DNA of 64,000 bases, taken from Escherichia coli. GTDB lineage: Bacteria; Pseudomonadota; Gammaproteobacteria; Enterobacterales; Enterobacteriaceae. The stretch lies in the NCBI RefSeq assembly GCF_965641715.1, contig NZ_OZ282453.1; one strand, given 5' to 3'. This document shows, in pieces, positions 42,348 through 42,663 of this stretch (the stretch's first letter is position 1; every line of letters begins with the position of its first letter). Under the pieces are notes generated by a model. That model was not told where the DNA came from, made no database searches, and saw nothing but the letters and a program-made list of their open reading frames with translations. The position numbers and the translations under genes are program-made.

Positions 42348-42663
42348 GTAGGCCTGATAAGACGCGGACAGCGTCGCATCAGGCATCGTGTGCAAATGTC
42401 GGATGCGGCGTGAACGCCTTATCCGACCTACAAAAAAAATTTATCAATGAGTTAGAAATCCCTGTAGGCCTGATAAGACGCGCCAGCGTCGCATCAGGCA
42501 TCTTGTGCAAATGTCGGATGCGGCGTGAACGCCTTATCCGACCTACAAAAACAAATTTATCAATGAGTTAGAAATCCCTTTAGGCCTGATAAGACGCGCC
42601 AGCGTCGCATCAGGCATCGTGTGCGAATGTCGGATGCGGCGAAAACGCCTTATCTGACCTACA
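42348..42663. repeat. BIME array: about 2.7 tandem copies of a ~116-bp unit, each with two inverted REP palindromes, between yacG and mutT
   Basis: Unit starts at about 42348, 42464 and 42581; REP sequences taggcctgataagacgcg...gcgtcgcatcaggc and tcggatgcggcgtgaacgccttatccgacctac seen three times. Confidence 0.9.

Follow-up and report, generated by a model that had tools for sequence, protein, structure and literature searches.

The spacer between the converging genes yacG and mutT of Escherichia coli is filled, in the 64,000-nt stretch of DNA analysed here (the window), by a tandem repeat of palindromic units, and the question it raises is what kind of element this is, whether its unit number differs between strains and whether such differences would matter to the neighbouring genes. 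The gene order on this chromosome is coaE, zapD and yacG on the plus strand, followed by mutT and secA on the minus strand; the names yacG and mutT were taken from the RefSeq annotation of orthologous loci, and the open reading frames from the window itself. yacG (42131-42328, plus strand) encodes the 65-aa DNA gyrase inhibitor YacG at the end of the coaE-zapD-yacG run, and mutT (42659-43048, minus strand), identified by its ORF and by RefSeq annotation, encodes the 129-aa 8-oxo-dGTP diphosphatase. The repeat is very likely an ordinary E. coli REP/BIME array, made of three Z2-Y doublets and two locus-specific linkers with an IHF consensus, which together fill the spacer.

Tandem Repeats Finder reported a single array at 42348-42663, with a period of 116 bp, 2.7 copies, 95% matches, no indels and a score of 567, coordinates and numbers identical to those of the preliminary description, which had reported a unit of about 116 bp repeated about 2.7 times. 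A repeat search recovered three direct copies and the arms of six hairpin palindromes, and placed the third copy of the unit, 68% identical, at 42317-42432. The array is composed of three REP pairs (Z2, a 13-nt linker and Y), joined by two long A/T-rich linkers of 32-33 nt. The first pair consists of Z2 REP a (42348-42384, plus strand; GTAG-first on that strand, with the loop variant GGACAGC, 36/38 identical to the reference Z2), the 13-nt linker ATCGTGTGCAAAT (42385-42397) and Y REP a (42398-42431, minus strand; CTAC-last on the plus strand, 32/35 identical to the reference Y). Long linker 1, the A8 variant (42432-42463, plus strand), separates it from the second pair, which comprises Z2 REP b (42464-42499, plus strand; 36/37), the 13-nt linker ATCTTGTGCAAAT (42500-42512) and Y REP b (42513-42546, minus strand; 32/35). 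Long linker 2 (42547-42579, plus strand) is the A5CA3 variant, the same as the K-12 linker, and leads into the third pair, with Z2 REP c (42580-42615, plus strand; 35/37), in which TTAG replaces GTAG, the 13-nt linker ATCGTGTGCGAAT (42616-42628) and the mutT-proximal Y REP c (42629-42662, minus strand; 31/35). All three short linkers were read directly from the sequence. The yacG stop codon (TGA, 42326-42328) lies 19 nt upstream of the first REP, and the intervening segment CATTTGTCTGATGCCGCAC (42329-42347) is possibly a relic of half a Y REP; its resemblance is weak, with about 13 of 20 bases matching by eye, and it is conserved in all alleles.

The REPs were typed by alignment to the reference Y, Z1 and Z2 sequences quoted in PMC11208160. 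The GTAG-first palindromes proved to be of the Z2 type (35-36 of 37-38 positions identical) and the CTAC-last palindromes of the Y type (31-32 of 35), and both scored far lower against Z1. These alignments, together with the six hairpins of the repeat search, agree with the earlier reading of the unit as a BIME with two inverted REP palindromes. The GTAG/CTAC foot tetranucleotide is present in five of the six REPs, Z2 REP c being the exception, and in the Y copies a compensatory change in the stem, from C-G to T-A (GCCGGAT...ATCCGGC to GTCGGAT...ATCCGAC), preserves the hairpin. Shuffling of the window gives an expectation of zero for the REP pattern. The folding z-scores of the 351-nt array region were -8.5 (plus strand) and -7.3 (minus strand), and single REP hairpins ranged from -13 to -22 kcal/mol (z = -3.4 to -5.8), with Z2 REP a at -21.8 kcal/mol (z -5.8), Y REP a at -19.2 kcal/mol (z -5.4), Z2 REP c at -21.4 kcal/mol and Y REP c, the weakest of the six, at -13.1 kcal/mol (z -3.4); the long linker is unstructured as RNA in the same folding. 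Five of the six REPs are intergenic, and the sixth overlaps the mutT stop codon by 3-4 nt. REPs of the array recur at a median of 16-19 further places per E. coli genome.

Each long linker contains a perfect IHF consensus, TATCAATGAGTTA (42442-42454 and 42558-42570), whose core WATCAANNNNTTR is perfect in both; the window holds 6 matches to the consensus against 2.2 expected. The long linkers probably bind IHF, and an A-tract followed by WATCAANNNNTTR resembles high-affinity IHF sites, for example lambda H'. When the linker alone was searched by BLAST against 5,426 complete E. coli genomes, it was found in 1,871 of them, at 1,926 places in total, with a median of one place and a maximum of three per genome. 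Among the matches listed, all those of full length lay in unannotated sequence, and those in K-12 derivatives lay at the yacG-mutT spacer. The long linker is therefore locus-specific and not a dispersed L motif. Strains G12 and A26, whose linkers form a second, diverged family, retain the IHF consensus, as does E. whittamii. The A-run that opens the long linker varies (A8, A9, A10 and A5CA3), both between alleles and within one allele (42432-42439 and 42547-42555 in the window; loci L011-L015), a pattern suggestive of homopolymer slippage in addition to the changes in unit number.

Three classes of BIME have been described: BIME-1, with y and z1 REPs, a single copy and a long, conserved L linker in which an IHF site is common; BIME-2, with y and z2 REPs, tandem copies and short linkers; and atypical BIMEs, which are multi-copy chimeras of the two (PMC3333891). 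In the yacG-mutT array, y and z2 REPs alternate in orientation and stand in tandem copies whose number varies among strains (1-4 pairs across the 5,426 genomes), as in BIME-2. Its Z2 REP is 36/37 identical to Z2 against 28/37 to Z1, so that y is not paired with z1, and it is tandemly repeated rather than present as one copy per locus, as BIME-1 would be. As the REPs are of the Y and Z2 types, the array is BIME-2-like or atypical, not BIME-1. Judged by its parts, the best label appears to be an atypical BIME, with BIME-2 components and an L-like IHF linker; that class shares with the array the y and z2 REPs, the short linker, the L-like IHF linker, the multiple copies and the strain-variable number, and no difference from it was detected. 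The K-12 RefSeq feature table was consulted for a curated REP or RIP entry at the locus, and the rows it returned were all CDS.

A canonical BIME-1 is present elsewhere in the window, at 12146-12245, where a Y REP and a Z1 REP flank the 35-nt L linker AAAACCCTTCAAATTCAATAAATTGAAGAGTTAAC; an Rfam match to ES036/CssrF (12179-12221) corresponds to the linker region of this element. Like the array, this BIME-1 has a Y REP, a linker of about 33-35 nt and a GTAG-first REP, and its L linker starts with AAAACCC as the array linker does and also has an IHF-type core 11-12 nt past CTAC. In alignments against shuffled sequences, L resembled the E. whittamii linker more closely than 1,994 of 2,000 shuffles (6 scored as well) and the G12/A26 linker more closely than about 97% of them (about 60-69 of 2,000 scored as well), whereas the comparison with the K-12-type linker was not significant, 262 of 2,000 shuffles scoring as well. 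BIME-1, RIP and RIB elements differ from the array in having a Z1 partner and a single copy, whereas the array has a Z2 partner, a tandem arrangement and a linker found at one locus only.

BIME-2 linkers are of type s, l or r, and the one BIME-2 array examined for comparison was REP325, located between yjdM and yjdN in K-12 and the source of naRNA1-6. In both arrays Y and Z2 REPs alternate and form a Z2-13 nt-Y doublet; the intra-pair linker is 13 nt long, as is 'l' in REP325, and the two doublets are identical in 68/79 aligned columns. In REP325 the whole doublet is repeated head-to-tail with a period of 100 and 5.8 copies, as against 116 and 2.7 copies here, and its inter-pair linker is a G-rich 'U' motif of 17 nt, dissimilar to the 32-33-nt A/T-rich linker with the IHF consensus. 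The Y REP of the array, with its compensatory stem change, is a variant that also differs from REP325. Because the doublet is shared with REP325, on which the Rfam model naRNA4 (RF02564) was built, all three pairs match that model on the minus strand, at 42351-42428 (77.4 bits), 42467-42543 (85.8 bits) and 42583-42659 (77.8 bits), against a gathering threshold of 59.5; these matches run in the mutT-sense orientation, and those on the plus strand fell below threshold.

That the unit number would be polymorphic had been predicted from the window, and the comparison across 5,426 complete E. coli genomes bore this out, with alleles of one, two, three or four pairs. In BLAST searches with the whole array, overlapping pieces precluded direct unit counts, and flank-only, linker-only and synthetic four-pair queries were used. 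The flank-only query, consisting of yacG and the 3' part of mutT, allowed spacer length to be read directly and ranked 5,424 genomes, from which 60 records were sampled at even steps down the ranking. One pair was found in 33 of the 60 (span 536-546; about 55%) and two pairs, as in K-12, in 23 (span 650-655; about 38%); the flanks were split in 4, and none of the 60 had three pairs. With the synthetic four-pair query, three pairs were found in at least 49 genome records among the 5,426, a rare allele at about 1%, several of these records being re-sequenced or clonal strains. Four pairs were found in a single genome among the 5,426, that of the baboon isolate PapRG-06-5, which has three IHF linkers and a 132-aa MutT. 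In every parsed allele the linkers were one fewer than the pairs (n-1 for n), and all linkers of E. coli proper carried an IHF consensus. The three-pair allele is already present in public genomes; the haplotype of the window is identical to no record, the best match being 99.3%. Eight three-pair sequences, including that of the window, represented seven distinct haplotypes of variant sites when A-run types were included, a pattern that fits recurrent unit-level recombination together with homopolymer slippage. The spacer is also a handy length-polymorphic marker, with lengths of about 100, 215, 330 and 445 bp.

In 280 of the 5,424 genomes (about 5%), the flanks were too far apart to be joined. 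All three of the interrupted spacers examined carried a REP-specific insertion sequence, either IS621, the bridge-RNA recombinase element, or IS1397. In strain O103 RM8385 (L002, 2619-3996), IS621 lies in the first Z2 REP, where the order is GTAG, the IS and AGGCCTGAT; the insertion matches the natural target of IS621, ATCAGGC-CT-AC with a CT core (PMC11208160). Z2 REP a of the window carries the IS621 target ATCAGGCCTAC on the minus strand. In UPEC 26-1 and the Nissle-type strain EcN (L003, L004 2468-3985), IS1397 is located in the loop of a Z2 REP with GCCA on both sides, the known REP target position of this element (PMC1525189). The presence of IS621 and IS1397 at their known targets therefore provides independent confirmation that these repeats are functional REP targets, and marks the yacG-mutT spacer as a recurrent landing pad for both elements.

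Beyond E. coli, a degenerate mutT pattern retrieved 76 Enterobacteriaceae loci, and the spacer was extracted from 38 of the 76, the yacG pattern missing many genera; most of the extracted spacers were 23-114 bp long. Citrobacter and its relatives have other REPs in the mutT-yacG spacer. In Salmonella enterica subsp. arizonae and diarizonae the spacer is 314-340 bp long and without REPs. E. whittamii has an arrangement resembling the two-pair allele, in which the linker is clearly homologous and its IHF core unchanged, and a divergent lineage labelled E. coli SCPM-O-B-8794 (L032) has three pairs, with the IHF core changed to TATCTGCCAGTTA. Since homologous arrays occur in E. whittamii and in L032, the linker predates E. 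coli proper, and judging from these sequences the one-pair alleles are probably deletions. The three pairs retained by L032 with a broken IHF core indicate that IHF binding is not required for persistence of the array.

At the mutT end, the preliminary description had placed the last REP across the stop codon, and direct reading, the ORF and translation of the C-terminus all agree with this. The stop is the 'cta' at 42659-42661 (TAG on the minus strand) and lies inside the CTAC (42659-42662) of Y REP c, so that the stop codon is supplied by the conserved GTAG of the REP, and the stem of the hairpin starts at the nucleotide directly after the UAG. Comparison of MutT C-termini in the window (42659-42673) and at six further loci (L005, L006, L008, L009, L016 and L018) revealed two forms. 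The first, ...KLKRL-TAG, is 129 aa long and is that of the window and K-12; the second, ...KLKRVYVG (also VYVE, VYVR or VYAG) followed by TAA or TAG, is 132 aa long and occurs in O157, B2-type and other strains. In the alleles encoding 132 aa the GTAG is mutated, and the Y REP itself encodes the last 3-4 codons and the stop. All E. coli alleles read, as well as E. whittamii, retain the overlap between REP and mutT stop. The stop codon of mutT, an antimutator gene, thus comes from the hairpin of a mobile repeat, which in most lineages also encodes the final few codons.

On the reading of the locus as an ordinary BIME array, the REP doublets would be non-autonomous elements that TnpA-REP, the REP-associated transposase, recognises and cleaves; cleavage and recombination by TnpA-REP, and BIME copy numbers that differ between strains, have been described (PMC3333891). 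The 116-bp direct repeats may gain or lose units through slippage or unequal recombination, and homopolymer slippage and gene conversion would add further variation within the array. At the RNA level, REPs have been described as obstacles to 3' exonucleases that can also act as partial terminators (PMC3333891). A scan of the spacer (42329-42658) for promoters and terminators returned no terminator-like site on either strand and no promoter-like site; an intrinsic terminator was rejected for the same interval, where neither strand has a GC-rich hairpin followed by a U tract. The stable RNA hairpins of the array may set and shield the 3' termini of the two converging transcripts, replacing the missing intrinsic terminators. 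Y REP c would also be expected to hinder ribosomes terminating on mutT, which would have to melt its hairpin; REPs within 15 nt of a stop codon are reported to stall ribosomes and lower protein output (Liang 2015, as summarised in PMC12306157), a rule that does not extend to the yacG-side REP, 19 nt from the yacG stop. On DNA, the Y REPs may act as preferred gyrase sites and the linkers as IHF bending sites, a placement that would suit a spot where converging transcription accumulates positive supercoils. Gyrase cleavage has been found to be enriched in BIME-2, with Y cut more than Z2 in vivo, and the supplements of that Topo-seq study contain no mutT or yacG entry (PMC6379681). Additional units would insert REP-IHF-REP modules mid-array, and the REPs next to the two genes would stay as they are. 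Because mid-array additions spare the gene-proximal REPs and more than half of strains have one pair, the unit number is probably near neutral, and the fact that over half of E. coli genomes have one pair and no linker speaks against a strong selected function of arrays with several units.

Several other readings of the locus were weighed against that of an ordinary BIME array. The regular spacing of palindromic repeats, with intervening sequences of about 33 nt, recalls a degenerate or miniature CRISPR array, and there is next to no chance that it is one: the two 'spacers' are near-identical copies of one linker, differing only in the A-run, the repeats are Y and Z2 REPs alternating in orientation, and the same REPs stand at a median of 16-19 other places per genome. 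The denial of a CRISPR in the preliminary description was therefore correct, as was its dismissal of a 79-aa ORF as spurious. This ORF does exist, running uninterrupted from a TTG start at 42332-42571 on the plus strand, but it consists wholly of REP and linker sequence, so that its length and sequence depend on the unit number (1-4); it matched no Pfam family, no CDS is annotated in the spacer of any intact RefSeq locus fetched, and the idea that it is a real small protein gene can be set aside with near certainty. An improbable reading, although one with rather more in its favour, is that the array is a functional cluster of naRNA4-like small RNAs, whose Y-l-Z2 units, transcribed in the mutT sense and released, would bind HU and so bridge cruciforms and compact the nucleoid, as has been proposed for REP325. 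Transcription of most REPs, and a need for two-hairpin RNAs in HU-mediated condensation, have been reported (Qian et al., PMC4550694), and the unit described here folds into two hairpins, matches the REP325 unit in 68/79 columns and, in all three pairs, exceeds the RF02564 threshold on the mutT-sense strand (77-86 bits). As that model in effect fits any Y-linker-Z2 doublet, the matches indicate a shared repeat family, not a shared function. Only REP325 was tested genetically, however, the yacG-mutT locus is not mentioned in that study (PMC4550694), over half of strains carry just one unit, and the spacer is without a promoter-like site.

The position of Y REP c suggests a further role for the element, chiefly that of a translational attenuator of mutT, in which the REP at the stop would stall ribosomes, trigger tmRNA tagging and keep MutT low, so that REP alleles tune its dosage and the mutation rate. 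The stem of Y REP c begins one nucleotide past the UAG, and REPs this close to a stop codon are reported to down-regulate translation (Liang 2015, as cited in PMC12306157). Retention of the REP-stop overlap throughout the E. coli alleles read, and also by E. whittamii, through two alternative REP-encoded endings points the same way. The proximal hairpin is, however, the weakest of the six in the allele of the window (-13.1 kcal/mol), unit number leaves the proximal REP unchanged, the REP of Citrobacter starts several nt past the stop, and the spacer is merely 23-60 bp in many genera. Attenuation as the main role is accordingly a minority possibility, and we consider it doubtful, although mutT is well suited to testing whether a REP near a stop codon lowers translation, as has been reported. 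Far less credible is the stronger proposal that the number of REP-IHF-REP modules, together with the stop-supplying REP, forms a heritable polymorphic dial on MutT dosage or local supercoiling. Were it true, strains with 1, 2, 3 or 4 pairs, or with IS621 or IS1397, would differ in A:T-to-C:G mutation rate, and a gyrase-binding array at the 3' end of yacG, which encodes a gyrase inhibitor, could feed back on yacG expression.

The reading of the locus as an ordinary REP/BIME array places it among elements whose kind, classes, inter-strain copy-number variation and role as IS targets are already known from the literature, and a literature search combining yacG, mutT and REP found no papers. What is new is minor, namely the census of alleles, the L-like IHF linker specific to this locus and the alternative MutT C-termini encoded by the REP. 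For annotation, the region should be labelled a BIME array and neither an ORF nor a CRISPR; beyond annotation, little depends on it.

Other features were observed in the window in the course of the same searches. Near the array, an Rfam match to STnc40, a Salmonella sRNA candidate, was found at 43063-43132 on the minus strand (84 bits), spanning the secA stop and the hairpin of the secA-mutT intergenic region. A match to PssrA (105 bits) lies at 48779-48868 on the minus strand and is here chromosomal, although the family is described as a plasmid-encoded Shigella sRNA, and a match to tp2 (103 bits) lies at 28461-28574 on the plus strand. Two further tandem repeats also had 2.7 copies. That at 21691-21952 has a period of 96 bp and 83% matches. 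That at 24945-25759 (also 24835-24904) has a period of 303 bp and lies within a 630-aa ORF (23888-25780, minus strand) with three lipoyl-domain repeats, as in AceF, so that the 303-bp repeat is coding, not intergenic.
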